A stretch of DNA of 64,000 nt from Callorhinchus milii. Its lineage: Eukaryota. The notes under the pieces are model-generated. The model was not told where the DNA came from. It saw only the letters and a list, made by a program, of their open reading frames with translations, and ran no database searches. Shown here in pieces: positions 5,836 to 64,000 of this stretch. The first letter of the stretch is position 1; every line of letters starts with the position of its first letter. The translations under genes and the position numbers were made by a program. The stretch lies in assembly GCF_018977255.1 (NCBI RefSeq), contig NW_024704742.1, forward strand, positions 13,642,001 through 13,706,000, read 5' to 3'.

Positions 5836-5887
5836 ATTGTTATTTCTCTCCCTTTCCTTCCCCATTTTGCAGTTCTGCTTAATTTAT

Positions 5888-5975: not shown

Positions 5976-6519
5976 CCTTTTATCTGCCCTCCCACCGTTG
6001 AAGAGAGTTGACTTCACAGGATCCAGTCCCGATCACTGCAATACTCCACAAGCACAATCCAACATTTAAACACTTATCATCTTCTGCCTTTTTTTCCAAG
6101 GCAGATTTCAATTCAGCTCACTAACTTGCAATTAATTTCATGAACCTTAATCTTCTTTGAAAACTTAATTCGTTGAATGATATCAAATCCCTCTGAAAAT
6201 CCAATTATTTTTTCCCACTGATCTGTTAATTTATGAGTCTCCTCAAAGAGTTTCTGTAAATTTGTGAGACGTGAATTGTAGCTTATATTGCTATGAAAAC
6301 CATTATGACTTTTGCTTTATAATAAATAATCATTTATGTTGCCTTGTAAAATACCATCGAGCATTTTCTTCCTGGCAGTGTTAGACTAGTTCATCTCTAT
6401 TTTGGGTGTGAAGACTGCGACACATGATGTGATGATTATCAATGGTGAGCATTATTACCAGTGTGAATTATCACATTGTTGAAAATTGTGGTTGAACAAG
6501 TCAACAACTAGCGTCTAAG

Positions 6520-6781
6520 CTATAGGTCTGGCTTTGGAATTCTATCCCCCAGTGCCTTTGCCTTGCTTCCACCTTTCCTCCTTCAAGGCCGGTCTCAAGA
6601 CCTTTCTCTTTGACCGAGCCTTTGGCTCCCCTCTCAACTCTCTACCCCCTCCTCGATCCCTCCCTTCCCTCCCCTCACCCTAACCATTTCTCCCCTGCTC
6701 GGGTCCTGACCCAACTGTACAGCGCCTTGGGACGTCCTCCTGCCGTGAAAGGCGCTCTATAAATGGAATCTTGTTGTTATT
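6520..6781 (+). mobile_element. L2 LINE 3' end
   Basis: Closely matches 26230-26460 (ttcaaggccggtctcaagaccttt...gggacgtcctcc...gtgaaaggcgctctataaatg). Confidence 0.9.
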
Positions 6782-7904
6782 GAGTCCTCTATGTGACTTC
6801 AGCAATAGTTGGGCCTAAAGCCACTGACAAAGCCTCTGGTGGTCAACATTGGAGTCGATGACAGCAAAGTGAGGCTTTTGAGAATAACTTCACGAGATAC
6901 GAATTAGCTCGACCTGTGTGGTCATAATTATCACATCACATCGATCATTTTCTCAGGTCTGTTTGCAGGAAATTGTTGTGCAATTGGCTGCCTCGTAGCC
7001 CTCCAAATACACCGCCATCAACTGGGGTGTGATTTCTGATATTCACAAAAGGGATCCGAGACGTTTAAGTGACCCTCTAATGGGTGGTTTTAGAAGGAAA
7101 GGGGTCCAAGAACAATTTGGAAATGGATGGCTGTGAGGAAATGATGTTTCACTCCCTGACCTTTTCACACATTAGCAGTATGCATGACTCGCAATTGATG
7201 CCTCTTTTGGGAATATCACTTTCAATTAAATTGTTTTCAAGTTAATGTAACTTTCCAAATGTAGTTTGTATCTAAATCTGCTCTCTTGGAAATAGATTGG
7301 GATTATCCTGCTTAAATAGCACTTTATTTTGCGTATTAATTCTTAAAGATTAGGAAACTTTATACATGGAGATATTGTGCCATACTTTCAATTTAGGTTC
7401 AGCACCTTCAGTTATATTTCTAGACTTGTGCCAGATATTAAGTGCTATATGATGATCATATTTCAATAGCATTGTATGATCAGCTTTTTTTAATATTTTT
7501 TTTATATAGTATTTTATATAGTATCATCAGCACCCATATAACTAAATGCTTTCATACAACACTGCAGAATCCAATATAGAAATCTTTAAAAAAAACTTTT
7601 ATAACTTGTCTCAGTGTCATTCTTAATTTATGTCTCTATGACTTATTGTTGCTGTAAACAGCATGAAAAATTTCAGTCTGTGAAAGTTAGCTGTAAAACC
7701 TCATGCCTGGAATAATAACATTTATTTATATTCTTGTAATATTTAACATGCCAAGACTTGTGCTCATCTTTCTAACTTTAATTTTCACTAAGACCGTTTG
7801 TAAGATGGCAGAAACAATCCTATGGAAAGGCTCAAAAGACATGTGAACAACAATAATACAGTGCTCCAAGTATCCTGTATATGTAGTGACCTTCACACAG
7901 GATT

Positions 7905-8195
7905 CACAGTATCCTGCATGAAGGATGCTACATATGTACAAGTTGGTGATCGTATACATTTATATCACATCTTTCATGTTGGGAAGACATCTCAAAGCTC
8001 TTTATACAGCTGACTGGGCACCCAAACTGATGAGAGGTGAGAATTGGGGCAGGGATTAGGTGAACGAAGATATAGTATCAAAGTTTTAATGTAGGTTTTG
8101 AGGATGAGGAGGGAGGGGTCAAGTTGGAGGGACTCCAGGATGGAATTTCAGCGAGTGGCGCAGAACGGCTGAGAGCTAACTCACTGATGGTGGGG
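7905..8195 (-). mobile_element. L2 LINE 3' end, degraded
   Basis: Antisense L2 tail (tttcatgttgggaagacatctcaaagc) followed by the antisense of the LWN/FKTYLKT region. Confidence 0.6.
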
Positions 8196-9094
8196 CAGCT
8201 CAGGCCATCCACTTTCTTACCCCTTTCTCTGCTTTCAAAAGACTCATACATAATAGCTCCTCAACCTTGCTTTGGCTCAACATTCTTAAAACTCTTATTT
8301 TGTGGTCTGGTGTGTGACAGTACATATTCAAGTGTTTTGAGTCATTCAATTATCATTAAATAAACAGAAATATTTTTTCTTGTCAAATTAATTAATCCAT
8401 AGTGTAATTCCTCTTGCCTGTTCTGGTCTTAAAACTTCAGATTTAGGTTATTTTATTGTTATATATGTCAGCATTCTGCGTGGAGCAATGATTTATCAAT
8501 GTGTAAGAAAACGCCTACCAGTTTAAAAGGAGTAACTAAGTGTGCATATATTTTCCCTGCAGTTACGATGTGCATATGGATTTTTGGTTAAATTGAGCTG
8601 TGTTGCTCAGAAAAGAGATGCATACATCAAGCCAAGTGACAAAACAGCACTCTGACAAATGGAGTAAAATTAATAAATAATAAAGAAGTATGCTTTTTGG
8701 ATCCTCAGAGGGGGAAAAGTGAGAAGTTAATGCTGCTTTGAATATCTGCTAGTGGCTGTATGTAATTTGATGCATCCGGAAAAGGAGACGTAGATTTGAG
8801 CTCCAATTGGAACTCCTGATGGCTGCACTAAAATGCCATGGAGCACATTAAACATCACAGGAGTAGAGCTCGATACTGCATTGATTCACTCCTTGTAAAA
8901 GGAACACACAGGTAACTGTTTCAGATACCTGATACTGAGCAAGACTGAGATGAGCTCATGAGACACAATGAGGTCTAAAATGTGCATTGGATTAACAGTG
9001 CATGAGCTTCCCATGTTTACACACATACAGTTACCCTTTATTATTTAATTAATCTATATTTAAAAGGATTACAGATGATTCTAATAATAATAAA

Positions 9095-10285
9095 ATAATA
9101 GTCATTTTTCATTTGATATAGTATCTTTCGTGTCAGGAGGACGTCCCAAAACTCTTCACAAGATGTACTGTAAAGTGATGTGACTGTGTGTGGTGTGGGT
9201 GAACGCAGCAGCTATGTTTCGCACAGTAATGTCACACAAACAGCAATGAAGTGAATAACCATTTATTTTAACTGGGGGATCATTGGAGAAATTCCCTTTC
9301 TTTTCCAACAGTTGCATGTCATCTATAATGTACAACTGAACAATTAGATGGGGCCTCAGTTTAATGTCTCATCTGAAGGACCACACCTCTGACAATGCAG
9401 CACACCCCCAGTACTGCACTGGAGTGTTAGTCCAGACTATGTGAGTTCCAACTCTTCATGTGGGGGTTGAACCCACAACCTTCAGACTCAGAGGTGAGAG
9501 TGCCTCCAACAACAACAGCTTGGATTTACATAGCGGTCTCCACGCAGGAACGCATCTCAGAGCGCTTCACAGAAATGAATCCCGGGGCCGAGCCAGGGGG
9601 AGGGGGAGGAAGGTGACCAAAGGCACGGTCGAAAAGAAAGGTCTTCAGCCAAGACCTGAAAATAGGAAGAGAGGGGGAGAGGCAAAGGGAGTGAGGAAGG
9701 GAGTTCCAGAGCCTCGGGGTGTAGTGGCTGAAGGCACGGCCGCCGATGGTGGAGTGGAGGACTAGGAGGACAAGGAGGAAGCCAGACCCGGTGGAGCGAA
9801 GGCATCGGGCACTGTTGTGAGGAGAGAGGAGGTCAGAGAGGTAGGGGGATGCAGAGGAGTGGAGGGATTTGAAGACAAGGGTGAGGATCTTGAAGTCGAT
9901 CCTCTCTGGGACAGGCAGCCAGTGCAGTCTGACAAGAACTGGGGAGCGGAGTTTGTACGGGTAAGAATGTGGACGCCAGAATTTTGTATGACCTGGATTT
10001 TATGGATGGTAGTGGAGGGGAGACCGGAGAGGAGGGCATTTGAATAGTCCAGCCGAGAGGTGACAAAGGCATGAACCAGGGTTTCAGCGGCTTTTGGAGT
10101 GAGGTATTGGCGGAGACCGGCAATGCGTTGGAGGTGGAAGAAAGTAGTGCTGTTGAGGGACCGGATGTGGGGGAAGAAGGATAATTGGGGGTCGAATCTG
10201 ACGCCTAGGTTACATACGGGTTCGGAGAGTTTTAGGGGGAGGTCGGGTAGATGGAGGAGCCAGCCAACTGAGCCAGGCTGACACC
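9095..10285 (-). mobile_element. Deu-type SINE split in its tRNA-like head by an L2 insertion
   Basis: ...tcagaggtgagagtgcctcc (9507) resumes as cagccaactgagccaggctgacac (10261-10284); uninterrupted heads at 13300-13357 and 20425-20452. Confidence 0.8.
9508..10259 (-). mobile_element. L2 LINE 3' ~750 bp, young subfamily
   Basis: Reverse complement is highly similar to 50548-51273; (AAC)n tail at 9508. Confidence 0.95.
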
Positions 10286-12345
10286 CTATGTAATTAGCAA
10301 TGGTTAACTTCAGAATTTTCCATTTTTAGCCCAAAGGTTAGCCAAGGATTATTAGCCCAAAGAGCAGTTTGGACCCTAAGACCTGTATTTTTGTAAATGA
10401 GATGGCAAAGTTGTTATCCTTGGAGGGAAGATGATGGAAATGGAAAGGGGTTGGGTCTTAGGGTATATTTTATATAGTCCATCCCTCACTATCCAATTTT
10501 AACATTTTTTTTAAACGTGAACATCTCTGACAGGGATAATGGGAGAAACAATTAATGCAATGAATAATGCAATGATGCCTGAGACGTCCTCCCTACATGA
10601 AAGGTGCTACATAAATGTCAATTTGTACTTTATTGCATCCCAATGCCAATATTGGGAGGAGAAATTCCGTCAGCCAAACAACCCTGTATAATGTAACATT
10701 TCAACCTACAGCTTTAGAAATACAATTCACTCACATTGAATTTAATTGCGTTCGTATAAGATACAAACTCAGAAATAGAAATAAACAGAAGTAGATATTA
10801 TTGGCCTGATTTGTGGGTTGTGGTAGAGAAATATTATAATGAACATCTTTTTAAATGCTATTGTGTGGTAAAACATTACTTCTGAATATTGATTTGTAAA
10901 ATACTTAGAAACCATAATATTAGGGTTTGCCAATTTGTCAGTTATAACAAATTCATTGATCCCTAAAAATATAAAAGAATCTCACTTATTGATTTATCAA
11001 CCAATTATTCATGCTTCGATTGCTAAAAAACAAGTTTTAAGCAAGTGACATAGCACTATCAACACATGGATCTTGGTGTGGATGTAGTATAATAAAAACA
11101 CAGATTAAATTAGTTCAATCCTGCTCTATAGAAATGGAAACTGATAGTGTTGTGGAGGCAGGGGAGAATACCAGCATTAGCTTTAGTGGCAATAAACTGT
11201 AATAAAAATTCAAAGGATAGAACAGGTAACAAAAAATACTAGTAATATATTATCCTGTAAAACACAATAAAGGGTAATCTACAAAAATCACAGTACTTGA
11301 TTACACTCACTTTTGTTTGGTGTTAGAAGTATCATTAACAAGGTTCTGTTGACATTCACTAAGTAATTCCTATTTTCTGGAATATCCTTGTTTTGTCCTT
11401 CTTCTCTACTGAAGCACAAACAGAGTTGGGGCATCAAATGCAAATGTGTTCCTGCAGTATTTAATATTCATTTTGTGCTTTGTCAAGCTGTACTGTTGTC
11501 TAAACACTTGGCATCTGCCACATAACAAACTTCTCCTAGCCAGTAAATGGGCCAAATTACCAAGTACCTTCACGAACATTAAACAATAATTAACAGGGAG
11601 CGAAAAAAAAAGGGTATGGAACCGATAGTCAAAATTTCTTAACAGTATTATTGTTTTGATGTGAAGAACAATGTAAAACAAAATACATTTATGGAATGAT
11701 GATGTTTTAGATACGATCCATAATTGACTGTTCTAGCCAGGGAGATTTTGTTCAGATATCCTTTTGATTCATGCCATCCAGTTCAGGACATTAATGTCAA
11801 GAAGAAGACTGAGTCATAGCTACAGGGTCCATAACAATATTGCAAGTTCTAAATAAATAATGACAACATGCAGGATTTTGAGAATAAGGATGAATCCGAA
11901 AGTACAATTGCATGATTTGAGTGCTGTGATTTGCTCACTTTACAAAATCACAATAGAAAGCATTATAGCAAAGGCTCCTCCGTGTGTTCATTCTTTTTAA
12001 GCTATAAAATTGTGTGAAATAAACCCATTAGTTAAAATGCAGGAATGGATACATTAACTTCAAGTTCTCTATGCAACGACAATCAGAATTAAAAATGGAT
12101 GAACCGGAAGAAATACGTTGCTGAACTGAAATATTGATCGTTTCTTTCAATGTTTGAAAGTATAAAATTAACAGAATGTTTTAAGATATTTCACTGACGT
12201 TTTAATTCTCAATTTTGTTTAAAAAAAATCGTGCATTTAAACCCTTTTCTTCTTGTTTTAGTTGTTTTGCCACTCAACATTTCTTAGCTGAGAAGGCAGG
12301 TGCGTGTGACCTATTTTCAAGCCTTTGCCAAGACTCCTGTTGAGT

Positions 12346-12364
12346 TGACCACTAGGGGGTGAGA
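12346..12364 (+). promoter_or_regulatory. CTCF-like motif
   Basis: TGACCACTAGGGGGTGAGA vs consensus TGGCCACCAGGGGGCGCTA; lies in non-repeat DNA; C>T at the CpG position. Confidence 0.35.
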
Positions 12365-13014
12365 GACGCAGACCTAAGATTATTCTTCAGTATATTCATT
12401 TTGTTTGACTGTGGGAATGAAACAAGACTTCAATAGTGCATTATTTGAGGCACCAGCTGAGTTTGGAATCGCATCCTGTAGAAAATTACAGGAATTAACT
12501 TGTATCCTACCTCTCTGTGGCTTAGCACTTCAAAGCACCAATTTACTATTCTGTACTATTTTTATGTTTTATTTTTACGTTTTATTTTATTTTTATGTTT
12601 TATTTTACGTTGAATTTCATTCTTTAATTCTTTTTTTATTTGTTCACTGCATTCAGTGGGTGTGCGCTGAGCCAATAAATCTTATATGTGGATAGAAAAA
12701 TAGTGATGTACAATTGTGTTGCTCCAAATGAGCAAGAAAAAAATCCCTCCAACAGCAGCACACCTGTCTTCTGCCTGCTGGTCTGACTTACAGAATTATC
12801 ATTTTTTTGCCATATTTCAGTTTCGTTTTCAAAACCCAGGAAAACATCAAGAAAAAATTAATCAGAACCAGAAGGCCACTGCTTGTAATTTATTCTCCGA
12901 TTCAGTATGTAGCTTGCAAATTTCCAGGAGCTGTTTTCCTGAAAGGGAGGACCTGCTTCCCTGGGGATGTAATAATAACCAACTTTGCATTTGATACAAT
13001 GCTTTTTTGATCAG

Positions 13015-13357
13015 GAGGATGTTTCAAAGTTTTACAGGATATACTGTCAAGTGTAGTGACTGTATTTTGTAGGCGAAAGTAGCATCCAATTTGGCCATTC
13101 ACTTGGCTGTTTGTTGTCCGCAAATTATTTCCCACAAACAGCCAAGTGAATGGCCAATTTTATTTGAAGTATTGTTGGACAGAGCTCAATTTAACATTTC
13201 ATCTGATGGATGGCAACTCCTACAATGCAGCACACATGAGCACTGCATTGGAATGTCAGCCCTAACAATATGAGTTCAAATTTTCCATTGTGGGGCTTGA
13301 ACCCACAACCTTCTGACTCAGTGACAAGAAGGATACCAACTGAGCCATACTGACACA
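13015..13357 (-). mobile_element. Deu-type SINE containing a 24-bp fold-back
   Basis: Antisense tRNA-like head (ttgaacccacaaccttctgactcag...ccaactgagcc), Deu core and tail; inverted repeat at 13091-13157. Confidence 0.75.
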
Positions 13358-14499
13358 TGAAATTATAACATTACTTGGTAACCCACAGAAAACCTCTACA
13401 ATAAATTTCATTGTTGTTTGTTAATGCGTCAAGCTTAAAGACTAGTTTGGTCCAATATCTACGTTAGATAGATGAAAATAGAAACTAAGAATGTGAATGA
13501 AGATACAGCTTAACAATCTGAAAACTGTGTGTTGCTCTTTGAATGGGTTTTTGGTCATCTTTCCTATCCCCACCCTCCTCAAATCCCACCCTCAGCTTGG
13601 GTACCAAGCCATTATTGTTAAGTGCGTTGGACTTGATGTGAAATACACTATATAACTGTAAATTTGTATTATATTGTGTTTACTTGACACATTGAAGTTG
13701 TTGGGTCACAGACACTTCTAGAGGGCCATCTTGAGGGCCAACTAGAGACAGTTCTAGAGAGACTGACAGTGTCTCCGCATAACCCATTGGCTTGCATTCC
13801 TCACATTGCAGCTGTCAGAGAACTTCTACAAATAGCAAGTGAACACAAGCAACCACCACACCAATCAGCAAATATGCGGAAAAGTACCTCTTAGAGACTT
13901 TGAATGAAGCTTTTATATTGAATTCCACATTTGGTACTGCTCAATGTTTCACTTTTCAATTTGTAGTCAATTATAAATTCATCCTTCTACTTATACACAC
14001 ATCCCAAAGAACCAAAAAAGCCATGCAAAAGTGATCCCCTGCCATATGCTGGAGTGAATTTTATTGGCAGTGATATCGAAACTTTGCTACCCTCAGCCAA
14101 TTTCATCCCAGTTGGGCTGTGAATACGGTGATTATATAATCCAGAGTTCATCTAGCAGCCGAGTATACGTAGAATCAAAATGTTTATCTCTGCAGTAGAT
14201 ATGCACATGCAGTTCACATGTATTAATGAATAGATTAGTATTGTGGAATGAACTCAGGACATTAGGAAAGAGAACAGAGTATAAGTTACAATATTTCTTA
14301 AATGAAAGTGATTTAATAAGGAATCTAAGTTGCACAATTAGGGATTCATTCTGGCAACAACAGATTGGTCAGATAAATAATAATCCTTGCATTTAATTTA
14401 GCAATTTATCATGTCATCAAGAGTTCTCGAAATAGAAGGAAAGTAGACACAATTTACTTGTGGAGGGGAATTCTGATCAAAGTGAATTCTAATGGGATT

Positions 14500-14830
14500 T
14501 CCGATCAGGGCAAAATCTTTGACAAGTTTCCTTACTCCATACACACACACACATGCTTCTGTTTACCCATCAATAAGTGGGAACCCACTTATTAGTCGAT
14601 TGGCGGCTCGCTTTCCAGGGGTAATAATCCCTCCAAAATAATAATAATAATAATGTGGTCACTCAATCCACGACTGTGTGTGGGACACTGCTGTGCGCAA
14701 TGAGCTGCTGCGTTTCACCCCAAAACACACAGTCACTACCCTTTACAGTATATCCTGTGAAGCACTTTGAGACAGCTCGAGGATGTGATAGGGCGCTGTA
14801 TCAAATGCAAGGATTATTATTATTATTTTT
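14500..14830 (+). mobile_element. tRNA-derived SINE, long (older) variant
   Basis: caagtttccttactcc, then the extra segment ctgtttacc...ttagtcgattggcggctcgctttccagggg, then the standard 3' half and (TAT)n tail. Confidence 0.8.
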
Positions 14831-16319
14831 ATTATTTCTTATTCAGGAACATGATGAAGAAATGGTAAAGGATAACTTGGATAAGTAGACTCTCTGAGAA
14901 AAATAGTCGTGACTTTGAGAAATTATTTTGGACATTGATAGCTGAGTGATGGTTTACATTTATTGTGGCCAAAGCCTGAATGGTCCTCCTTAACATCTCA
15001 ATTTTAAACACATTATTGTGTTTGTGGACTATTTCTAGTGGACAAGGTCACAAGAGAGATTCAAGACACAGAATGTCCTTTGGCTCATTTGATACTTTCC
15101 TTCCAGAATACTAACTTGGAAATCTTCCCATTGCGACATTAAAGTGTAGTGATCAGGTGTCAACTGGACTCCGATGGGATTATTCTCACATCTGAGTGCA
15201 ATTTTGTGAGTTCAAGGCCCATGTTAGGATTTGAGTCCCAGTCCAGGCTGACATTGCAGTTCAGCTGCATTGATTCTCAGGTGAATGGTAAAGACTTCAT
15301 GAAACTAATGCATTTGTCTCAACAATCAATAAAGTTCACAGCAACTAACTGTGAAGCCCTTTGAGACTTTTAGCATAAAATATATAGTACTATAAATACA
15401 AGTTACTTCTTTCCAGTCAATAGCTTTGGATTAAGATATGTGTCACATTCAGATTTTTTAAACATTTCTCCTCTCTCTCTCTTCCAGACATTTCACAGAA
15501 TTCTGGAGCTTGTTAACTCTTTGGAGAAGACATCTTTTTTATATTCATTGGTGCAACTTATTAAGATCTTGCTTGATTTTTGTGCAGATATATTCAGAGA
15601 AGTATTTTTTACTCCCGTTTCTTAGTCAGAGAAATTATTCCTTAAATTGTCATTGAGCCAAAGAACAGATGCCTCCCACAGTCAAAAGAACTCAAGATGG
15701 TTACCCGGGGATGTCATTATACAGAGTAGGAAGGGAAGGTCAAGTAATTTTGGCCTGAAAGCCTCTTAAAGTGACTGATATCCCAGCGATGTTCCTGGTT
15801 GGTTTGTCTAATCACCCACAATATGTGGAGTATGCATTCAGTCAACGAATGTGATTAGTACATCTAAAGGTGAATAATCTACCTTTTCAGTAGTATTGAC
15901 TTAATGACCATTTTATTTCACATGCCACTGATTTCTGGCAAGTTCGGATGGTTTCATTTTGCAGGGAGCTGACATAGAGAGTTTCCTCCTGAAGTAGTTC
16001 ACCAGATGTTGTTTTTAAAGCACAGTGTGCTATTTCTATTGCAAGCAGTGATGCAGAGATGGCAGGATATAGATTGGAAGTGAGTTAATAAACTATTCAA
16101 GCATTGGAAAGGTTCACTACTCAAATGTTTATGAATCTTAGAAAAGTAGAAAGTTCAAGTCTTGCCAACCTTTCAGTATTCACAACATCTTGTAGACTCC
16201 AATGCCTTATTCAATTACAAATGTGAAATATGCCTAAAAATTACATAGTCACTGACTTTACAGTATATCCTGTTAAGCATTATGAGCACAAAGAGATATA
16301 GCGGCTTATGACAGCCTCA

Positions 16320-16450
16320 TTGGGGAGGACAAGGTTGCAGGGCTGTGGGGAGACAGCGGGGTAGTGGGATTGATTTGGCCAGCTCTTTTCAAAGAGCCGG
16401 CACTGAATGGCCTCCATCTGTGCTGTATAATTTTATGATTCTATGATTAT
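16320..16450 (+). mobile_element. CR1 3' tail
   Basis: gctcttttcaaagagccggcac...tgctgtataattttatgattctatgatt, same as 27090-27215. Confidence 0.8.
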
Positions 16451-16534
16451 CATGCCATCAAAACATCTCAAAGCGCTTCACATGATTTACTGTAGAAAGG
16501 CGGGAGTATTTTGTATTTTGCGGGAGTTCACATT

Positions 16535-16992
16535 TGCCACATTCAAGCTTGACTATGCCAACTCTCTGCTTGCCTTCACAGGCTGCAGTCTACCCAGAAC
16601 TCTACAGCCTGTGTCCTTTCAAACACAATGCTCCACAAGCCTAGCCTATCACCCCAGTCCTCACCCGGGTGAACTGGCTCCCAATCCCCCAGTAGCCTGC
16701 TTCACATCCCCCGCCCTACCTGCAGCCCCTCCATTGACACTTGGGATTTTAGACTATCTGCCCCTGCCTTCTGGAATTCCATTCTGGAGTTCCATATGAT
16801 TCGCTCCTTCCCTCATCTCCTTCATGGTCCACTTAAAAACCTTCCTTTTCGACCGCACCGTCAGATATATTCCACCTCCCCTAGGCCCCACCCCACTCAG
16901 CTTCCAGCTCAGATGCAAACCCTGAACTCTCCAGCTCCTTTAGATGTCCTTCCGATGCGAAAGGTGCTATATAAATATAATTCTGTTGTTGT
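16535..16992 (+). mobile_element. L2 LINE 3' portion, degraded
   Basis: KLDYANSLL motif, ttctggaattcc, aaaaccttccttttcgacc and an L2 tail with (GTT)n. Confidence 0.75.
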
Positions 16993-19189
16993 CCACGAAC
17001 ACAGAAGCCTCGTGTTACCTGCCTGACCTGCGCCTTCCGTTTTTGTTTCAGATTTCCAGCATCTGAATGATCAGTTTTATCTGGGGGATTGTTAGCCAAG
17101 ACACTTGGAGAAACTCCATTCTCATATTTAATAGTGCTATGAGAATTTTAATATCCACCTAAGTAGGCAGATAGGACCTTGATTTAACCTAATGTAGCTC
17201 TGATATTGCACCAAGCCCCAGGACTGCTTTGGAGTGTCAGCCTGGTTTGACAATTAGTTCAAAGTCCCAACATTGAGCTTCTGATTCAGAGGTAAGAGTA
17301 CTACCAGACAGTGTGACACCTACTTCTGCGAAAGGAACACTGCATTGTCAGAGGTCCTGCTACTCAGATGAGACATTAATCCAAGGTCCTTGTTTTGGTA
17401 GAAAGACACTCTGATGTCATAGCAGAGCTCCACTGATGGAAAAATGGTTTGATGTCAGGACATGAGACTCATTCAAAAAGCATCTTAATGCTGGGATGAA
17501 AAGATGGTAGGGGAGATATTCTGGAAAGATGATATTCCTGGAGAAAATAATGGATTGTCATAATGATATATTTTAATAAAAATAAAGTAAATTATAGACT
17601 AATTGTATAATAATGGAACATAGAAAGCATTTAATTTGTTTTTTTCTTCACCTGAAGTATTGCTGCATGGTGCTAACTATATCAGCTAATTTATAAAAGT
17701 GGCACCAGTCTTGTTAATTAAAACTGTAACTCATCTCAAGATTAGGATTTGTGAAATGTTACACAAAACTACATTACCACATTGCTGTGATAAGCATTTC
17801 CCAAGATTTCTTTCAAACAAATCAAAATAAGTTTCTATAAAAAATATTTTATATGTTCCATTTCACCTCTGAATTTCATTGAAATGCAAATTCATTTCCC
17901 AAGCTGCAGGATTCTTTTGTTATAATCAAAAAGGTTGTCATAAATGATTTAATTTCTGCAGTTTGTTTCCTTCATAATGAAGTGAGTGGAGTTCATTGTG
18001 CATACTAATAGAGCTTAAATTCATGATCGAAAATGGGAACAAGGCAACAATATAAATCGAAGTCTGCCTGATAAACAATGCTGACCTCATGATTTGACCT
18101 TTTGAACAGAACAAATGTCTCCTAAATCTGTGATTTATACTTTCATTGGCCGTGAAGACAAAAATCATCAAAGTAGCCATTCTGGGTTATGTCATTTGGC
18201 AGGATCTCAAAATGTATTCATTGGATTATTGGAAGGCCACTAAAGGTAATGATAAACAGAAGAACATGCAAACTTTTTTTTCTGGATTTTATGGTCATGA
18301 AAAATTTCTCCGCATAAAATTGCCCTCAGCATTCACACTGAAGTTGTGCTTCTAAATGAGTTTCTGGGGACTAAGTCCTGCTTATGTAGCATTTCACTGC
18401 ATTGGTTAGCTATAAAATAAATTACATGCTGTACTGTCTTGTGTAGTTTTATCAGGACAGTAAAAAATGCAGTGGCACTGCAATGTGATCAAAACCAATA
18501 AACAGAAATGCATTGATTTACCTTCCTTGTATTGCCTAGGCTGTGTTCTTAACTGGAGGTGAACTTGATCATAGGCACATTAGAGATTTGGTAACGAGTC
18601 AATTTTATTCATTGAAAATATGTATGAGGGAGTACTTTTCTAATCTGAAGAGTACCTGAGAGAGTACTTGTGCAATGTGACGACACTAAAGGAAATAAGA
18701 GAGCACTGTTGTATTAGACTCTCATCAAAATCATAAGCAACATTGGAAGTGGCAGTTTGAAAACAGTTATTCATATAATCATATAGAATCATTCCTAGTT
18801 AAATCCTAGACCTCAGCACAGCTTGCATGTGATAAATAGTTGTATCATTACGATTTATCTCAATTACCAACCACATGCTAATTCCGTGCACGCATACACA
18901 TACAGGCATATACAAACCCACACACAAAGAAAATACCAGCAACAGATATTTGGTTTTGCCATTGGCTATTATTATGTTGTACTCCAGCTCCTGTTTTTGA
19001 AGTCGCTTGGTACTGGTGTGCGGATCAATTTTCAAAACACACGCAGAAACCCATCACCATGCTTAAGAGTATCCAAACGAAACAGAACAGAGTCCTGTGC
19101 ATCCCACGTACAGATATATAGAGGTTAACATTGATGTGGTTTACATAGATTGCACAGCACATCCATGCTGATATATATGTAAGTCACAA

Positions 19190-19560
19190 GGCAACAACAA
19201 CGTTTGCATTTATATAGGGCTTTTCACATAGGAAAACATCTGAAACACAAAAACGGAATGAGAGCCTGAGCAGAGCAGAGCACGATATTTTACCCACAAA
19301 AAATAGTCAATCCACTTTAACATATCTCCTGTGAAGCGCTTTGAGATGTCTCAATTACATGATACGGCGCTGTATTAAATTCAAGGATTATTATTATGAT
19401 TATTATAGAAGGGCTAAGCAGGAGTGGCTGACGTCACAGTAAAAGGTTTTTAGACAGGTTTTGAAATTAGACAGGGAGGGAGCAAAGCAGGAGAATTAAA
19501 GGAAAGCGTTCCAGAGTGTGGGGTCAAAGTGGCTGAATGTTTACATACTGAGTGGAGAAT
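19190..19560 (-). mobile_element. L2 3' end (-) interrupted by a SINE 3' fragment (+, ~19290-19405)
   Basis: caacaacaacgtttgcatttatataggg is an antisense L2 tail; internal gtgaagcgctttgagatgtctc...ggattattatt is a SINE tail. Confidence 0.6.
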
Positions 19561-20079
19561 GTAACATTTCAGAGTGGATAGAATTTGGCAAATTGTTAAA
19601 TTCTGTTCCAATTCTGAAGCCTATTTTCTGTAGTTTCTTAAAAGCAACGAAGCAATTACAGACCTATTTAAGAATTTGATGAATTGTTGACACCCTGAAA
19701 TGCTCCGTTAATCACTCAAACCATGTGCAGATTGGAAGGGGCAAGACCGTGAAGTGGACTTGATGGGCCAGGATAAGGAATTTGAAGTCCATCTGCTGGG
19801 AGTATTTGTAATATGCAAACGAGGAAACAGCATGAAATCTGGGGGGGTGGATATGTGGTAGTAGGTGAGAAAGAAGTTAAAATTTAGAAGAACTGTTAAT
19901 ATTTATATAGAAACGTAGACTGTTAATAAGGCTTGTGGGAGTTTGTGCTACTTCGGTCTCTGCATGTGATTATTAGCAGGTGCAAGTGAATGTTAAACTG
20001 ATGGTTAAGGTTTAAAGGTTTTGATTAAGGAGTGAGTGACCAATTTTATCTGGGACCTGGACATCGGGAAAAACTCCTT

Positions 20080-20550
20080 TCTTTTTTGAAATACTGTAGT
20101 GCCATGGGATCTTGGCAGACAGGAACTCAGTTTAATGTCTCATTCGATGGAAGACACCTCTGACAACGCAGTGTTTTCCCAGCACTATAACGGAGTGTCA
20201 GCATAGATTGTATGAGTTCCAACATGGGATTTGAAACCACAACTTCCTAACTCTGAGGTGAGGTGAGGGTGCTACGCTGAGTCAGGATGACACTCCAGTG
20301 CCTTTCATGTCAGGACGGCAATGAGCTCAGACAATGCAGCAGCCCTCATTGGAGTATCAGCCTAGAATGTTCATTCAATGTCCCAATTGAACCCCCTCCC
20401 GCCCCCAACAATTTGCTTCGGATGAAAGAGTGCCGCTAACTGAGCCAGGCTGATAGTTAACAATAACAATAATAATACTTGCATTTGATATAGCGCCTTA
20501 TCACATTGTTGAGCCGTCTCAAAGCACTTCACAGAAAATACTGTAAAGTT
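20080..20550 (-). mobile_element. Cluster of SINE fragments (two Deu-type heads and one SINE tail)
   Basis: gtgccatgggatctt...ctcagtttaatgtctcat...cacctctgacaac; second head at 20330-20452; tail at 20460-20550. Confidence 0.7.
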
Positions 20551-20606
20551 AATTAACTGGTTAACAATGGAAAACAATAAATAAAGAGGAATTATCATTA
20601 ACTGAT

Positions 20607-20659
20607 AACAATGGCAGTGGACACCTTTAACTGTGTTAAAGGTGTCCACTGCCATTGTT
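20607..20659. repeat. Perfect 25-bp inverted repeat, 3-nt loop
   Basis: aacaatggcagtggacacctttaac-tgt-gttaaaggtgtccactgccattgtt. Confidence 0.97.
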
Positions 20660-21594
20660 CAGAAGTTGACAAGTGTAGTCTAGATCTTACAGAAAATTAT
20701 GATATATCTGAGCCCTGCTTGTGTCAGTTCAGCAAACATATTATCAGTCTGATTTAGATTTTTAGTGCGCTAAGGGAAATTTTCAGTCAATTAATATAAA
20801 TTTTCTAGCTATATGCACCATGGTCACAATTAATAGCAATAGAATTGCGGGAGACAATATGATGAGGAATGATGAGATGTGAATTTCACACACGTTATGC
20901 ATCTGCCCATATTTAAAGCATGTGCATGCCAGAAGGCCAGGAAAAAGTCTGTTCAGCCCATTAAGTCAGCTTTTTTGCAGGTCATGTATAATCTCCCCTC
21001 TCAAGGACTCCACTCCACTTATTTAAAATCTCCTGCGGGAATGTTCTACAACATTTCTCCCTGACTTCAAAAGCTAATTGAGCAAAACTTCAGAATATCT
21101 ATCTAATGCTACAACCTCCATTATTCAGCCTTGGATAGTTGCTTTTTATCGATGGTGCTCCCAGCAGCAAAGGAATTATCATTCTTTCTGGATCTGCCGA
21201 GCCTTTGCTTTTCCCTATAAATTTCAATTTGATTTCTAACCTGCTCTCTTCTAAACGATGAATTGACCCAGCACCAACAGCTTTTGCTGCGAGGCTATTG
21301 TAGACATTACAAAGGTGAAGTAACCGGAAATGATGCAATAAAGAGAAAGTGGTAGATATGGGTCATTCTGTGAACAGCCAAAGATCAGTTGAAGAAAGGG
21401 CTTGAAATCTCTTACAGTCCTACTTTTGAGGTTATTTACTGAAAATTGATGATTGTGTGGAAGTTTGGTTAACGGGTGAAAAATTAGGATTCACTATAGA
21501 GCTGATCATTTTTGGAGTGAATATCAGGGCAGTGTTATCTCCATTTGACCTCTGATTACCTCTCCTGCCAGTCACTTGTCCTACCTCCAAATAT

Positions 21595-22843
21595 GTATGG
21601 GTTACACCTAAATAGGGCTGGGACCAATGTCCTCGCAGTGGGGGTAACTAAGTTTAAACTAACTTTGAGTGGGGGAAGGGAATCAAGATGTAGCATTAGA
21701 GAGGACAACAAGTTACATATAAGGCTGGGAGAGACGCATGGTAATCCAGAAAAAGGAGGGTTTAGATGGGGGGAAGAAATGCAGAACAGACTAAGTTGGT
21801 CTTGGAGTGCATGTGCGTAAATGCATGGAGTGTGACAAACAAGATTGGTGAACTGTAGGCTCAAGTTGCCACATGGGGTTATGATATAGTGGCAATAACG
21901 GAGACCTGACTCAAACAAGGAGGAAATGGGAGCTGAATATTACTGGCTACAAGGTATTCAGAAGGGATAGAGAAGGAAAAAAAGGAGGGGGTGGCACGGT
22001 TACGGCTCTGGAAAGGGACGATGTGCTAGAGGGTCCAAAACCAGAATCTATTTGGTTAGAGTTATGGAGCAGAAAAGGAGCTGTTACTCTGTTAGGTATA
22101 TACTGTAGACCATCAAATAGTGGGAAGGAGATTGACGAGCAAATCTACAAGAAGATTTCAGAAAGATGCAAAACCAAAAGAGTAGTGATAATGTAGGACT
22201 TCAATTATCCTAAGATAGACTGGCAAAATAACAGTGTAAAGGGCAAGGAAGAGGAAGGATTCCTGAAATGTGTGCAGGATAATGTTCTGGATCAGTATGT
22301 TTCCAGCCCAATGAGGAAGGAAGCAGTGCTGGATCTAGTACTGGGGAATGAAGTGGGGCAAGTGGAGCAGGTTTCAGTAGGAGAGCATCTGGACAACAGT
22401 GATCACAACATCATAAGGTTTAGAGTACTTATGGAAACGGACAAGGAGCAATCAAAGATGATGATACCCAACTGGAAGAGGGCTAATTTCAGTTAGTTAA
22501 AAAGGGTCCTAGCCAAGGTGGACTGGAAAGAAAGATTGGCAGGTAAAACAGCTAATGAGCATTGGGAAGCCTTCAAGGAGGAGATAGTTCAGGGACAGAA
22601 CAAATACATTCCCACAAATGGGAAGGGTAGGGCATCCAATCCTCCCTGGATGAGTAAGGAGATTGGGATTACAATACAACAGCAAAAGGAGGCTTATGTT
22701 AAATGTCAGGTCCAAAATACAGAAGATAATCAAATAGAGTATAGAAAGTACAGAGGACAACTGCAAAAGGAAATAAGAGGGGCAAAGAGATTGTATGAGA
22801 AAAGATTAGCAGGTAACATAAAGGTATTTTCTAAGTATATAAA
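21595..22843 (+). mobile_element. Host CR1, part 1: ORF1 esterase end, APE endonuclease and linker
   Basis: GLHLNRAG (SGNH DxxH-type motif of CR1 ORF1); CVNAWSVTNKIGEL, YDIVAITET, GYKVFRRDREGKKGGG, DFNYP, LDLVL, SDHN; ends KVFSKYIK. Confidence 0.92.
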
Positions 22844-25594: not shown

Positions 25595-26462
25595 GTCTGA
25601 CATCAAGTCCTGGATGAGGGATAACTTTCTCCAACTGAACGTCAGCAAGACTGAGGCCCCCTGATTGGCTCACGCCAGCGCCTCCGCACCTCGGTCACTG
25701 GGAGCATCAGCATCCACGACTGCACACTCAACCTCACTAAGCCAGTCAGGAACCTGGGTGTCTTGTTTGACCCTGAACTGTCCTTTCTCCCCCACACTAA
25801 GCCAGTCAGGAACCTGGGTGTCTTGTTTGACCCTGAACTGTCCTTTCTCCCCCACATCTCCCCCACATCCCCTCAGGCTGCCGAAACCCTTACCCACGCA
25901 TTCGTCACATCGATTACGGAAACTCCCTCCTCATCGGCCTTCCCAACTCTTCCCTTCACAAGCTGCAGATCATTCAAAACTCTGCAGCTTGTTTACTCTC
26001 GTGCACCAGGCTCTGTGACCCTATCGCTCCCACTCTCACCCGACTCCACTGGCTCCCCATCCCTCAGAAGATCAAGTTCAAGATCCTCGTCCCCACTTTC
26101 AAGGCCATTCTAACTCTCTGACTTGCTGACTCCCTACGAATCTGCCCGCTCCCTCGTTCAACAGGCTCCGGTCTGCTCCATGTCTCCCACTACCATCAGT
26201 GGCCGGGCTTTCAGCCTCTCTACCCCCACACTCTGGAACTCCATCCCACCATCCCTTCGCCTCGCTTCCTCCCTTGCCTCCTTCAAGGCCGGTCTCAAGA
26301 CCCTTCTCTTCGATCGTGCCTTTGGTCGCCCTCCAACCTCTCTGCCTTCCCTCACCCCTGTACCACCCCTCCCCCATGCTCGGGTCCCGACACCTGACTG
26401 TTCAGCACTTTGGGACGTCCTCCCAACGTGAAAGGCGCTCTATAAATGTAATTTTGTTATTG
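25595..26462 (+). mobile_element. L2 LINE 3' portion inserted in the host CR1
   Basis: SDIKSWM..NFLQLNVSKTE, PVRNLGVLFDPELSF, L2 tail; CR1 gaaatgcaaagtgatg|atttgagaggaagaatgagg rejoins across it. Confidence 0.93.
25735..25856 (+). repeat. Perfect 60-bp tandem duplication inside L2
   Basis: cactaagccagtcagg...tcctttctccccca occurs twice (25735-25794 and 25795-25854). Confidence 0.97.
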
Positions 26463-48619: not shown

Positions 48620-51273
48620 AACTAGGCTCACCGAAACCTGGCTCTCCCCCAATGACCCCATCCCCCTAGTTGAAGCCTCCCCTCCAGGCTACACCTTCCA
48701 CCACACCCCCTGTCCAAACCAACATGGCGCCGGAATGGCCTTCATCTCCAAAGCCTCCCTTGGTCTTAACCCCTACTCCTCTGGCTGCTTCCTTTCCCCT
48801 CCTTCGAGCATCTCACCCTCTTCCATCCCTCTCTCTCACTGAAAATTCTCCTTGCTTACCGTCCCCCTAAGTCCCCCGGCTCCTTCCACACAGACTTCTC
48901 TACTCTCTTCTCTTTCCTGTCCCTTTGCTCTGAACTCCTACTCATAATGGGTGATTTCAATCTCCACCTAAACTCCACTTGCATCACTTCTGCTGACTTC
49001 ACTGCCCTCCTCTCCTCCCTAAACTTCACCCTTCACATAAATTCACACACCCACAACCATGGCCATGCCTTCGACCTCATCATCACCCATGGTCTTGACA
49101 TTTCCGACCTTAGCATAGTGGACAAGGCCATCGCGGACCACTTTCTCAACTCCTTGTCCTCTCACATCCCTCTCTCTTCCACCAAGCCCCCAACGATTCT
49201 CTACCGCCCTTGGAAAAGACTACCCCCTGAGTCCCTCACAAAGGTCCTCTCATCAAATATCCTATCCCTCTGGCCTTCCACCCGCGGAAATCCTAAAGCA
49301 GCCTTCCCCCACCTTCAACTCATTCATCCCCTTGAAATCCAGGACCATCTCCAAATCCACCCTATCTCCCTGGTAATACAATCATCTCCGTTGCCTGAAA
49401 ACCCAAACCCGGATTGAGCGCAGATGGCGGAAAACTGGCCTGACAGTTCACCACTAACTGTGTCTCGAGCATCTGCACAGCTACCGCCATTCTTTGACAC
49501 GCACAAAAATGGCCTTCTACTCCAACATCATCTTGGAGGCTAAACACAACCCCAAAATCCTTTTTTCCAGCCACCCACTATCTCCTCCGTGCGCCCCCTC
49601 AGGCCTCATCAATCTTCACATCCAATGCCCACCCTACATTCCTTCCTCCACATCTCTCCCTCCTCCTTCTCACCCACCATCATCTCCATGAAACCCACCA
49701 CCTGCTGCCTCGACCCCCTCCCCACCAACTTGCTGGTCACCCAGCTCCCCCTCCTCTGCCCACTACTGGCTGATGTCGTCAACCAATCCCTCTCCTCCGG
49801 ATCAATCCCTGCCCCTCTCAAAACTGCTGTCATCACCCCCTCCTCAAAAAACCTTCCCTAGATCCCTCAAACCCCAGCCACAACCACCCTATTTCTAACC
49901 TGGCCTTTCTCGCAAAAGTCCTAGAATGCATTGTTGCCAATCAACTTTGCACACACTTCTCCTCCCACTCCCTCTTCGAACCCCTCCAGTCCGGTTTCCG
50001 CCCTACCCACAGCACAGAGACTGCGCTTATGAAAGTCACAAACAATGTCCTCTCTATCTGTGACCAGGGCTCCCTCTGCCTCCTTGTCCTCCTAGAACTC
50101 TCCGCCGTGTTCGACACAGTCGATCACACCATCCTCCTCCATGGTCTTTCCTCCATCATCCATTTCAGTGGGACGCTCTCGTCTGGTTCGAGTCCTACCT
50201 CACAAACTGCCAGCAGTACATCTGCACAAATGGCTTTTCCTCCTGTTCTCACCCGGTTACCTGTGGGGTACCCCAAGGTCCATCCTTGGCCCCCTCCTCT
50301 TTCTGATCTCTATGCTCCCTCTTGGGGATGTCATCCGCAGACATGGGGTACACTTCCACATGTATGCAGACGACACCCAACTCTATTTTTCCACCTCACT
50401 TTGCGACCCCCAATCCCCTGATGTTCTGTCAGCCTGGCTGTCAAACATCAGGGGCTGGGTGAGCGCAAATTTTCTTCAGCTGAACGTTGGCAAGATGGAA
50501 GCCATACTCTTTGGCTCTTGTCAACATCTAAAATCTCACAGTTCTCACCTCCTCCACCTACCCGACCTCCCCCTAAAACTTTCCGAACCAATACGCAACC
50601 TAGGCGTCAGGTTCGACCCCCAATTATCCTTCCTCCCCCACATCCGGTCCCTCATCAGCACAGCTTTCTTCCACCTCCGACACATCGCCCATCTCCGCCA
50701 ATACTTCTCTCCGAAAGCCGCTGAAACCCTGGTCCATGCGGTTGTCACCTCTCCGCTGGACTATTCAAATGCTCTCCTCGCCGGTCTCCCCTTCACTACC
50801 ATCCATAAAATCCAGATTATTCAAAACTCTGCTGCCCGCATTCTCACCCGCACCAATCTCCGTTCCTCCATTTCCCCAGTCCTTGCCAGAAAGGATCGAC
50901 TTCAAGATCCTCACCCTTGTCTTCAAATCCCTCCACTGCTTTGCACCCCCCTACCTCTCTGACCTCCTCTCTCCTCAAAACAGTGCCTGTTGCCTTCGTT
51001 CCTCCGGGTCTGGCCTCCTCCTTGTCTCCCGAGTCCTCCGTGCCTTCAGCCACTACACCCCGAGGCTCTGGAACTCCCTTCCTCACTCCCTTCACCTCGC
51101 TCCCTCTCTTCCTATTTTCAGATCTCTGCTGAAGACCTTTCTTTTCGATCGTGCTTTTGGTCACCTTCCTCCCCCTCCCCCTGGCTCGGCCCCGGGATCC
51201 GTTACTGTGAAGCGCTCTGAGATGCCGTCCGACGTGGAGGGTGCTATATAAATCCAAATTGTTGTTGTTGTTG
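48620..51273 (+). mobile_element. L2 LINE covering most of ORF2 (APE and RT), disrupted
   Basis: [88 protein letters not shown]; (TTG)n tail. Confidence 0.96.
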
Positions 51274-60345: not shown

Positions 60346-60444
60346 GTTGGCAAAGGAATGTCAGAATTGATTCAACCCTCTGTGGCAGTCTTGGTAGTTC
60401 AATTCCTGAGCCAGGTGGGTCCATGGTACTGCAGGGCACTGTCA

Positions 60445-60750
60445 CGACAGCCAAGCCAGCCTGGCTCATTGGCAGGTCTTGGAAGGCAAGACCAGTCACT
60501 GGGGTCAGGGATTCTTCCCTTTCATCTCTTGCTAACCCTGCAAGCTAAAGCCCTAATGGGTAGGATAGTCCTAGCTGGACAAGTAGGGGAAAGCTTTACA
60601 GACTTTCAATGGCAAGCTATGCAATTTTATCTGGTTGGATTCCAGCGGTTCCCCAATGCACATACTGGGGTCCCCAAGACTTGGCCAGTGGCCATGTTGT
60701 AACAAATGTCTCCAATTCCCTATTTTCCGAAGCACAAATTTAACTCAAAA
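60445..60750. repeat. Unclassified repeat or duplication; second copy at 62297-62381 + 63122-63330
   Basis: ctggctcattggcaggtcttggaag vs ttggctcatcaacaggacttggaag; gtcctagctggacaagtag vs gtcctagtttgacaagcag; tcaatggcaagctatgca vs tcaatggcaggctatgca. Confidence 0.8.
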
Positions 60751-62381
60751 GTTAAATTTTCCTTTGTTGGAATGACATTGCCTTTGTTGGCATGGTTTAC
60801 CAGGGTTTTGTGATTTGCCCAAGTTTCCCTATAATACTTAAATCTGGTGCACTGTAAGGAAGACTGAGCAAAGGGATATAATTAAGTGCAATCATTAAAT
60901 CCTTTCCCTCCTGAGCACATGCCTCTTGCAGATTATTTTCAGTTTCATTATATTAGCTTGAAAAGCTGCTGTTGCTTGTAATTGTTTAAATTTGCGATTT
61001 GAATGGATTTCTTAAATTCATTTTTCATCCTCTTTGTGCTGATTTGAAAATATTGCTATGGAATATGCAAAACAAACTTCATAGAGTTAGATGCGCCAAA
61101 TGGTGTAACCATGTTTTAGATCCAGTGGTTAGTAGCATGTGATAGATAAGTGGCTATTTCACTCCTGCCAACACCTTCATTCAATTAGCAAACTGGGGCT
61201 CTGCAGCTTTAAATGCCTGAATTTTACAATGAGTCAGTGAAACAAGATTACATGTGCTTCAAACAACATCTGCTATGGTCAAGAAATAACATTTTTAGAT
61301 ATTCTTAATCAAGCTGAATAATCATCAGGTATGATCTCTATTGCGCTCGGCACAAGAACAAAATTTATACCCTTAAAATTGGATTTCAGTCCTTTAGCGT
61401 TGAGTTGAACTATAGAGACAAGGGTAGCCATAGGGGATACTTGCTTTGAAATATTAAAGTCAGCTGTAATTGGATCCACTTAACCAGCAGGTCCAGTTTT
61501 AAAATGCATTGGCAGGTCAAGCATTCTGAAATGCAAAAAGGTTTAAAGGAGAAGGTTGTGGATGACTTTCGGATGCTTATTGACAGTTCTTACTAATGGG
61601 TCTTCAACACTGAAACTGTACGGACAGAACTGCAAATAAACAACCTAAACAATTAAACAATGTACTGGGATGAAATCTGCATCACTAGGTTAAGAAGAAA
61701 CCTTCACAACATGCACACAAGTATCGTATTTGGTTCCACACATTGCAAAAGTATCTATGGGTATAATACATCTGCATTTTGATGGCCAATTTGTCTTTCT
61801 GCAATTTGTGCATTGGTAATAAAATCTAGTCATATCATTTAGTGTGTCTGTTCACTGGCTATTCTAGCCCCACAACAGGGTTTGAGGTTATCATCTGTGT
61901 AGATAACACAAACGCAGAATTGAATAACGTAGCACTTTTCAGGTTAGATGTTATTGTTAAGGTTAAGTTAGATTAGGTGCTATTGCTTCAGATGAGGTGG
62001 TAAATAAAGTCCCGCCTGATGGTCCAGGTGAATAAAAATAGCCCCTTTTGAGAGAGGAAAAAGCAGTCACAACCTAAAAAATTATGCTTTCCGTATGTGT
62101 GGATGAGATAGAAACCGAACAGTGGAGAACAGATCAAGTAAGTTTGGTAACAGATGATTTACATAGTTGCTTTGTTATGACCAATAGAAATATCCGATGA
62201 TCAGAAAAAATATAAATAAGCCAAAAGGGAAAATGTGTAATCTGATTAACACAAGGACTGGAATGCAGTTAAACTGTTGTCCTGAACGCCCCTCAAACCA
62301 GACCAGCTAACTTGGCTCATCAACAGGACTTGGAAGAGCAGATCAGAAACTGAGGGTATGATTTTTTCCCATTCAACTCCT

Positions 62382-63117
62382 TGTTAGAAAATAAAATCAG
62401 CCAAATCTGCAAGGAAATAACGCTAATTCCTCTAACCAGATATCAGACTGTTTTATTATAATTCGTTCGTTATTCCCCAATATCCCGATGGGTCAGACCA
62501 AAGGCCGGTACAATCAACAGATCTTATAACAGAATAACACCACTATAGATATCTCGAGTTCAAGAGTTCAACACTGTGTCTTTCCAGCACACAAGCTTGA
62601 TTCTTCATGCTTTCAGTCTTCTTGCTTACAGCTTTCAATCTTCCATCTGATATCCTCAGTCTTAGTGTTTCCAGCTCTCAGTCTTTCATCTCTGTATCCT
62701 TGTCTCCACGACCCGGGACGGCTCCATCTCCCGTATCCTTGTCTCCGCGACCCGGGACGGCTTCATCTCCCGTATCCTTGTCTCCGCGACCCGGGACGGC
62801 TCCATCTCCCGTATCCTTGTCTCCGCGACCCGGGACGGCTCCGTACACAAAGTTATCGGAACTCTTATACCAATATTCATTCAATCATGGTGCGGATATT
62901 AGATCACCCGGTCGAAATCATGCTGGGTTCACGTGAACACCTCATGGGGTGTACGTGCCTCACACACACAAACACACTGTCCTTGAGACAGTCCGTTATC
63001 TCGTGTACGTGCAGGGAGTTTCAGTCCAGCTGCCCACAACACACTTAACTTAAAAGTTAACCCGTTCGCAACATCTATTATGATTCTAACATTATACAAA
63101 AAGTGTAAATTCTAACA
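62382..63117 (-). mobile_element. Solo LTR (736 bp; ERV- or Gypsy-type)
   Basis: Termini TGTTAGAA...TTCTAACA; TCCT duplicated at 62378-62381 and 63118-63121; minus-strand TATAAG (62864-62869) and AATAAA (62452-62457); CpG-rich; flanks rejoin to match 60500-60550. Confidence 0.88.
62687..62842. repeat. 39-bp minisatellite x4 inside the LTR
   Basis: Unit catctcccgtatccttgtctccgcgacccgggacggctc, four near-identical copies. Confidence 0.97.
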
Positions 63118-64000
63118 TCCTGCTATCTCCACATACTAAAGCTGCACTGGATAGAGTGGTCCTAGTTTGACAAGCAGTGGGAACCTTCCCAGACCGCGTT
63201 CTCAATGGCAGGCTATGCAGATTTATTTTGTTAAACTCCAGGAATACTCCAACTCACCCACTGAGGTCTTGCCGACCTTTCCCTAATGCTCTCCTGAATT
63301 AGAAAAATAGGGTGCATTTAATTCAAAAACAACAACAACTTGCATTGTTTTAAATGGGAATTTCTATACATATGACAAACTCTCAATCCAGTTTGGATAT
63401 TTTGGATATTCTTAAGCATGGGCTTCCTCCTGCATCAAATACCCGCTGATAAAACAAAGGTCTGAAGAAAATTCAGCTTTGACAATGTGTTTTTTAAGCC
63501 AATGTCTGGTAAAGCAGCATTGAATTACTGTTGCCTTGACCAGAGTTATATGGGAGGGCACATGGTCTTCACTCACTAAAATAATAACATTGATATTGAG
63601 TCTTCAACAGGTCGGTGCCAGGTGAAATCATTCACTCAAACTTGGGGGAGAGGAGTTTTCCATTCCAATATTGTTAATAAATTTAAGAAAATGTTTCAAG
63701 GACTTGCTTAGTCCACATTCCCCACCCCCCCTGCTATATCACGAACACACCACTGTCAGTCAGTGCTGAACCTCTCCAAAAGCACTGTACTCAACAAGTA
63801 CATAAGTGTCTGGAACATACTCACTTGAACAGAGAATGTTGGGTTCCCATGGCACCTTTCCATTAATGGTTTCCTGGGCAATTTCTAAAAGTGTTAGTAC
63901 TTGGAGGCATTTATTACCATACTAAAGTGCCTTCACTTAAGTCTAACCTGCACACGGAGCAAGTTAAAACCCTGGAGCGTTAAAGCACAAATGGGAATTC

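Follow-up and report, generated by a model that had tools for sequence, protein, structure and literature searches.

The 736-bp insertion analysed here, located in a 64,000-nucleotide window (the whole stretch of DNA under study) of the Callorhinchus milii genome, is very probably the solo LTR of an endogenous retrovirus (ERV) of the snakehead retrovirus (SnRV)-like type and a member of a sister LTR subfamily of CmiERV lineage I. The SnRV placement is that of Han's Pol tree for the scaffold 2 provirus, the solo LTR itself carrying no Pol. An earlier sequence-only reading had assigned the element to class I (gamma/epsilon-like) ERVs or to Gypsy elements and considered it a possibly uncatalogued family of a cartilaginous fish. 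The host was identified correctly, but the class has to be revised, as the LTR contains blocks nearly identical to CmiERV scaffold 2, a lineage I element clustering with SnRV, and the lineage has been published (PMC4422223). The LTR form, in turn, seems to be undescribed: no account of the subfamily was found in the openly searchable literature, Repbase, Dfam and most subscription journals being outside this search.

Boundaries of the insertion and the interrupted host repeat

The insertion is terminated by TGTTAGAA and TTCTAACA, which form an 8-bp inverted pair with an unpaired ninth base, and is flanked by TCCT on both sides, in agreement with the sequence-only reading; a 5-bp duplication does not fit (Table 1). 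Aligned separately, both flanks match one unbroken paralog with identities of ~69-70% and E values of 5e-5 and 2e-11, the scores of 68 and 115 comparing with null maxima of 46 and 49 (200 random stretches each), and both TCCT copies fall on a single position of the paralog. This paralog had previously been taken for a visible empty site. It is indeed unbroken and aligns with both flanks, but it is a diverged copy of the host repeat and not an orthologous empty allele. The host repeat comprises ~250 bp and is present in only two copies in the window, one of them interrupted by the LTR (60426-60672 and 62279-63268); its depth of 800-2,900 beside the LTR in contigs of public sequencing runs marks it as multi-copy in the genome. 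No Rfam family matched in the LTR or in the host repeat.

Neither a primer-binding site nor internal sequence was detected beside either LTR end at this locus, as both flanks belong to one host repeat, and the window holds no second copy of the 736-bp LTR. These observations bear out the earlier proposal of a solo LTR with an integrase-type 4-bp duplication. The termini and the duplication are nevertheless insufficient by themselves, because 2 of the 265 8-bp TG..CA pairs lying 200-2000 bp apart in the window also have a 4-bp duplication. The other such pair (TGTTGGCA, CCTT, 389 bp, at 60785-61173) has just 2 CpG, lacks AATAAA on both strands and is most likely due to chance.

The same frequency of 2 in 265 would allow the insertion to be read as a DNA transposon with short TIRs, or as unrelated sequence between chance termini. 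This reading is contradicted by an inverted repeat that ends at 8 bp and by depth edges and paralog breakpoints that coincide with the termini, and it is already refuted by the blocks shared with a retroviral LTR and by the PPT junction (see below); we give it practically no weight. The paralog breakpoints, the CpG content, the read depth and the match to the published LTR establish the insert as real. Depth was obtained by aligning contigs of four public runs (X1, X2, X5 and X8; X1 and X2 are genomic) to the window at a likeness of 85, and it rises and falls at the LTR termini.

The ratio of observed to expected CpG is 1.01 in the LTR as compared to 0.33 in the window, with a maximum of 0.69 among 166 control stretches of 736 nt, which is consistent with the earlier description of a CpG-rich insert in a CpG-poor window. 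Half of the CpGs (18 of 36) lie within a 39-nt x 4 tandem array that had escaped the sequence-only reading; with the array removed the ratio is 0.76, and among 211 control stretches of 580 nt there are 2 that attain this value. In an exact word search, words of the array gave 0 matches in the published Han 2015 dataset. The array was rejected as a structured RNA since it folds no better than shuffled sequences (z of -0.1, -0.5 and -1.0).

The locus probably arose by integrase joining a provirus via its TG..CA ends into an old repeat, in minus-strand orientation. Target duplications result from staggered integration (PMC5210030, in the accessible part), and a 4-nt staggered cut accounts for TCCT on either side; this duplication is observed, at this one locus, and the chemistry is that of textbooks. 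LTR-LTR recombination, a source of solo LTRs (PMC4977317, accessible part), would subsequently have excised the internal region so that a single LTR remained, and the copy has since drifted by ~1-2% from its closest relatives.

Table 1. Features of the solo LTR and its surroundings (window coordinates; strand of the feature)
Feature	Position	Strand	Remarks
Solo LTR, 736 bp	62382..63117	-	very probably a sister subfamily of CmiERV lineage I (SnRV-like ERV)
TSD TCCT, left copy	62378..62381	.	maps to 60527-60530 of the unbroken paralog
TSD TCCT, right copy	63118..63121	.	
Host repeat, left part	62279..62381	+	older, family not assigned; multi-copy by depth
Host repeat, right part	63118..63268	+	
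Unbroken host-repeat paralog	60426..60672	+	~69% identical
U3 start and 5' integrase-recognition end	63040..63117	-	block common to the CmiERV scaffold 2 LTRs
Second conserved U3 block	62883..62961	-	contains CACGTG and CACGTA hexamers
TATA-like box TATAAG	62864..62869	-	putative function; U3/R border probably near 62835-62840, ~25-30 nt downstream
39-nt x 4.0 tandem array, CpG-rich	62687..62842	.	95% matches, score 284; start of the putative R
Degenerate short repeats, purine-rich on the minus strand	62598..62691	.	adjoin the array; ~20-nt piece common to the published LTR by eye
Splice-donor-like GTAAG	62625..62629	-	lies upstream of the poly(A) signal; low weight, since a 5-mer may occur by chance
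Polyadenylation signal AATAAA	62452..62457	-	70 nt before the LTR 3' end
Predicted R/U5 hairpin	62387..62464	-	in the basal stem all of AAUAAA is paired with the U-rich U5 end
U5 end and 3' integrase-recognition end	62382..62398	-	final 17 nt agree fully with the published 5' LTR

Relationship to CmiERV lineage I

Three ERV lineages have been described in the elephant shark by Han 2015 (PMC4422223). Scaffold 2 represents lineage I and clusters with SnRV, and lineages II and III are epsilon-like. We compared the LTR with those of the scaffold 2 provirus (Supplementary Dataset 1 of PMC4422223), the counts being taken by eye and four exact words being confirmed by search. The U3 start is identical to each of the two scaffold 2 LTRs at 76 of 78 positions, the second U3 block agrees with the scaffold 2 5' LTR at 72 of 79 positions and includes three words of 13-17 nt that occur exactly in the supplement, and the last 17 nt of the LTR are identical to the 5' LTR throughout (17/17). 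By eye, a piece of ~20 nt near 62673-62690 is also common to the scaffold 2 LTR. Read on the minus strand, the shared blocks stand in the same order, and in both LTRs AATAAA lies ~70 nt from the LTR end.

The remainder of the LTR differs considerably. R and U5 are only loosely alike (roughly 60-65% by eye), and ~60% of the LTR has no close match in the published one. The published LTR is longer (~830 nt by eye versus 736 nt), it has a long U3 segment beyond nt 78 where only ~75 nt are found here, and it lacks both the TATAAG box and the 39-nt x 4 array; moreover, it occurs as one of a pair, whereas the LTR studied here is solo. Word searches located neither TGTTAGAA nor TTCTAACA in the other two published proviruses. 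Likewise, homology to the epsilon-like scaffold 324 LTR was not found by word search, this LTR having different ends and none of the terminal or internal words searched.

The run contigs reveal further LTR forms. Position 63040 is a branch point for contigs of both X1 and X5, the X5 branch matching the longer published U3 at 30 of 30 positions (by eye), and additional U3 branch points occur at 62953, 62968 and 63016. The LTR subfamilies of lineage I form a mosaic, in which the form of the published provirus may be a minority one. At 63117 the loose end of three X8 contigs matches the sequence preceding the published 3' LTR, i.e. the purine-rich PPT side, at 27 of 30 positions, which demonstrates the minus orientation and ties the LTR start to an env-bearing internal region; the LTR end is therefore joined to a scaffold 2-type internal region somewhere in the same organism, by a link that runs through the first 78 nt and is thus common to short-U3 and long-U3 forms rather than specific to this subfamily. 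Together with the position of AATAAA, this junction confirms the strand that had been proposed before. A provirus carrying exactly this LTR was not seen in the material searched, and among the loose ends listed there was no tRNA-Ser primer-site junction at the LTR 3' end.

The alternation of common and unrelated blocks, as well as the branch points at 62953, 62968, 63016 and 63040, would also be expected of a non-autonomous or recombinant derivative having the integrase ends and U3 blocks of lineage I but a deleted or foreign internal region and being mobilised in trans; deleted copies with partly replaced LTRs are known for the frog class III element XtERV-S (PMC8278194, accessible part). The PPT-side junction matching an env-bearing provirus at 27 of 30 positions, although not tied to this subfamily alone, speaks against such a derivative, and we regard it as improbable.

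An even smaller chance is left to a class I (gamma/epsilon-like) or Gypsy origin of the solo LTR. The TG..CA ends, AATAAA and the 4-nt duplication would be compatible with it, and the env of the published provirus contains a gamma-type TM motif, CX6CC (by eye). The motif stands beside the SnRV-like Pol reported by Han. However, the sole sequence match of the LTR is to lineage I, the ends of the epsilon-like scaffold 324 LTR differ, and the 4-nt duplication is not specific for class I because gammaretroviruses and foamy viruses have it in common; it is also typical of foamy-like ERVs (PMC5210030, accessible part). We thus retain the assignment to an SnRV-like solo LTR. In the published provirus, as far as the source is accessible, an 18-nt primer site matches the 3' end of tRNA-Ser, and inspection by eye revealed this tRNA-Ser primer site, a Gag CCHC box and a donor-like site just past the primer site; like the TM motif, these features go unmentioned in the text of PMC4422223.

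Frame translations were scanned against Pfam. None of four open frames of the LTR, including a 172-aa frame across the array, gave a match. Only 3 of 116 frames matched in total, all of them to LINE endonuclease or RT; these 116 were chosen from 128 non-repeat frames of at least 62 aa, plus six selected by hand, obvious LINE remains being mostly omitted, and no host exon near the LTR was found among them. An exact 25-nt word of U5 yielded 0 matches in viral contigs and 0 in metagenome contigs. The LTR copy is most likely a neutral relic, immobile by itself, and any effect it has would be that of a stray promoter or poly(A) site.

LTR anatomy and putative regulatory features

In viral sense the LTR appears to consist of a U3 of ~280 nt with the TATA-like box, an R of ~400 nt starting at the array and a U5 of ~50 nt, with AATAAA, like the array, inside R in this layout, whose borders are putative. 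The LTR ends and AATAAA fit the general LTR consensus TGTTRNR..YNYAACA (PMC3601003, accessible part). A 10-nt word around the TATAAG box is absent from the published Han 2015 dataset (exact word search). The CACGTG and CACGTA hexamers of the second U3 block are E-box-like.

The predicted R/U5 hairpin lies within the last 89 nt and has a folding energy of -18.2 kcal/mol, two sets of shuffles giving z of -2.3 and -2.0; five folds were tried in all, and the z-score alone is weak. Among the 115 other AATAAA sites of the window the hexamer is fully paired in 3 and z is at or below -2.3 in 4, while none combines both properties. Burial of the poly(A) signal in a hairpin is thus a lead from structure prediction. 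Retroviruses must suppress the poly(A) site of the 5' LTR, and structure and splice donors are known means to do so (PMC3694450, accessible part). In the published CmiERV LTR, where the sequence is different, AATAAA can also pair with a downstream U-rich stretch as judged by eye.

The summed contig depth of run X8, which is RNA only by guess, amounts to 40,000-220,000 over about 62635-62835 and to 1,300-3,700 on either side, i.e. it is 20-70 times higher in this block, whereas the depth of the DNA runs X1 and X2 is roughly level there. At its upper edge the block stops ~30 nt past the TATAAG box, at its lower edge close to the donor-like GTAAG, and one go-back joint is listed for X8, from 62839 to 62643. 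Contigs give no level, start or end of a transcript, the array inflates the placement of X8 contigs, and 138 of 333 X8 records fit two places. A possible transcription start ~30 nt past the TATA-like box is a lead that the depth block suggests.

Combining these leads, the LTR could belong to an undescribed, high-copy subfamily (order 10^3) with a working promoter, in which transcription would start ~30 nt past TATAAG at the head of the array, a ~200-nt RNA or first exon would be abundant in some tissue, and the R/U5 hairpin burying AAUAAA would serve poly(A) site choice as in HIV-1 and foamy viruses. We consider this full scenario unlikely; if true, the subfamily would represent a family-wide regulatory element in a cartilaginous fish, and the ERV share of the genome would be ~tenfold above the published figure.

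Copy number, age and comparison with known systems

The stretch, or part of it, occurs in 19 of 24 listed public sequencing runs, some of them as small as 1-15 million letters. The summed depth over the LTR is 1,700-21,700 in X1 and X2 (9,212 and 10,420 at position 62410) as compared to ~9 in the single-copy flank. Summed contig depth is not a copy number and yields an order of magnitude only, which suggests ~10^3 related LTR copies, with ~200 for the U3 part at 62983-63039 and ~2,000 for the first 78 nt. From position 63117, 25 contigs of X1 and 30 of X2 leave the LTR with an agreement of only 0.40 and 0.38, as would be expected of many different insertion sites. Further copies, which the sequence-only reading required, are hence present, dispersed with different flanks and at high depth. 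One of them (X5 record 17, at 62376) lies in what looks, from its motif, like an L2 LINE RT fragment; its flank aligns with the flank of our locus over 6 nt including the duplicated bases, a likeness, in one case only, that reflects chance or target preference.

Contigs of both X1 and X2 span the two junctions without a difference (61900-62408 and 63090-63600), so the insertion is present in both, and no exact empty-allele joint is listed for either run. A joint from 62343 to 63155 was rejected as an empty allele: its sides are 31-40 nt and it fits a paralog of the host repeat. Polymorphism of the insertion is unsupported in these data, which come from contigs that lose rare variants and, for one run, possibly from the source sample itself.

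Among the matches listed, the closest contigs outside the array differ from the LTR at 7 of 557 nt (X5 records 17, 21 and 22) and at 7 of 423 nt (X8 records 26, 27, 31 and 32), giving 1.3-1.7% overall; the estimate omits the X1 and X2 pieces inside the LTR as well as records 25 and 30 of X8, since part of this material diverges by 7-13% and resembles other subfamilies. Han 2015 assumed a yearly rate of 2.2e-10 substitutions per site and dated scaffold 2 to 75 million years (PMC4422223). At this assumed rate the LTR is possibly ~60-75 million years old, which is of the same order as Han's date. This age is an upper bound, some of the divergence perhaps being older than the insertion, and depends on an assumed rate; for the epaulette shark 7e-10 per generation has been estimated directly (PMC10587355, accessible part). 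The insertion had been called recent, and it is young relative to neighbouring repeats, which are 70-85% identical, but not in years, given ~1-2% divergence in a slowly evolving genome and its presence in both genomic runs. CpG decay and G-to-A editing were considered as sources of the differences and rejected, only 1 of 12 majority differences being of CpG type; half of the 12 lie in the array or at its edge, where placement is unreliable, and we make no claim on this point.

The surrounding window is repeat-rich, ~30% of it being dispersed repeats common within the window. The LINE remains are L2- and CR1-like, and include a long degraded LINE at ~48660-51270. Six tRNA-like heads, mostly called tRNA-Ala, are probably SINEs. 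A perfect 60-nt x 2 tandem duplication lies at 25735-25856 inside an L2-like RT fragment.

The LTR is ordinary in kind and, with a parent lineage published in 2015, of modest importance. It indicates that lineage I has several mosaic LTR forms, and its 4-bp duplication is a data point for the SnRV-like integrase. Figures of 100-700 insertions and a coverage of 0.007% have been reported for elephant shark, coelacanth and lamprey (PMC4977317, accessible part). If the depth ratio is near right, ~10^3 copies of 0.7 kb would exceed these figures, because Pol-based counts miss solo LTRs. Orthologous presence or absence across chimaeras could calibrate the assumed shark rate behind ERV dates. The regulatory anatomy of SnRV-like LTRs is little described in the literature surveyed.

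Among known systems, the LTR is closest to CmiERV scaffold 2, as detailed above. The SnRV-like clade, to which Han's tree assigns lineage I, occurs in fish, coelacanth, amphibians and reptiles (Naville and Volff 2016, PMC4977317; PMC12193657; both in their accessible parts); it is defined on Pol, which the solo LTR lacks, and the accessible parts of these two sources contain no description of its LTRs or duplication length. Fish foamy-like ERVs share the 4-nt duplication, a feature that is not specific (PMC5210030, accessible part), but neither the X8 junction nor the published provirus has the foamy GGGTG at the PPT:LTR border. With a donor-like site that precedes the poly(A) signal within R, the LTR is reminiscent of the layout of foamy virus LTRs (PMC3694450, accessible part), a 5-mer being weak evidence. 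Finally, XtERV-S, a class III ERV of Xenopus tropicalis that is likened here by description (PMC8278194, accessible part), has a 5-bp duplication and an ERV-L-like Pol as opposed to the 4-bp duplication at our one locus, and its tRNA-Ser primer site finds a counterpart only in the related published provirus; with the LTR itself it has in common a length of ~700 bp and the existence of LTR subfamilies with a replaced 5' part.
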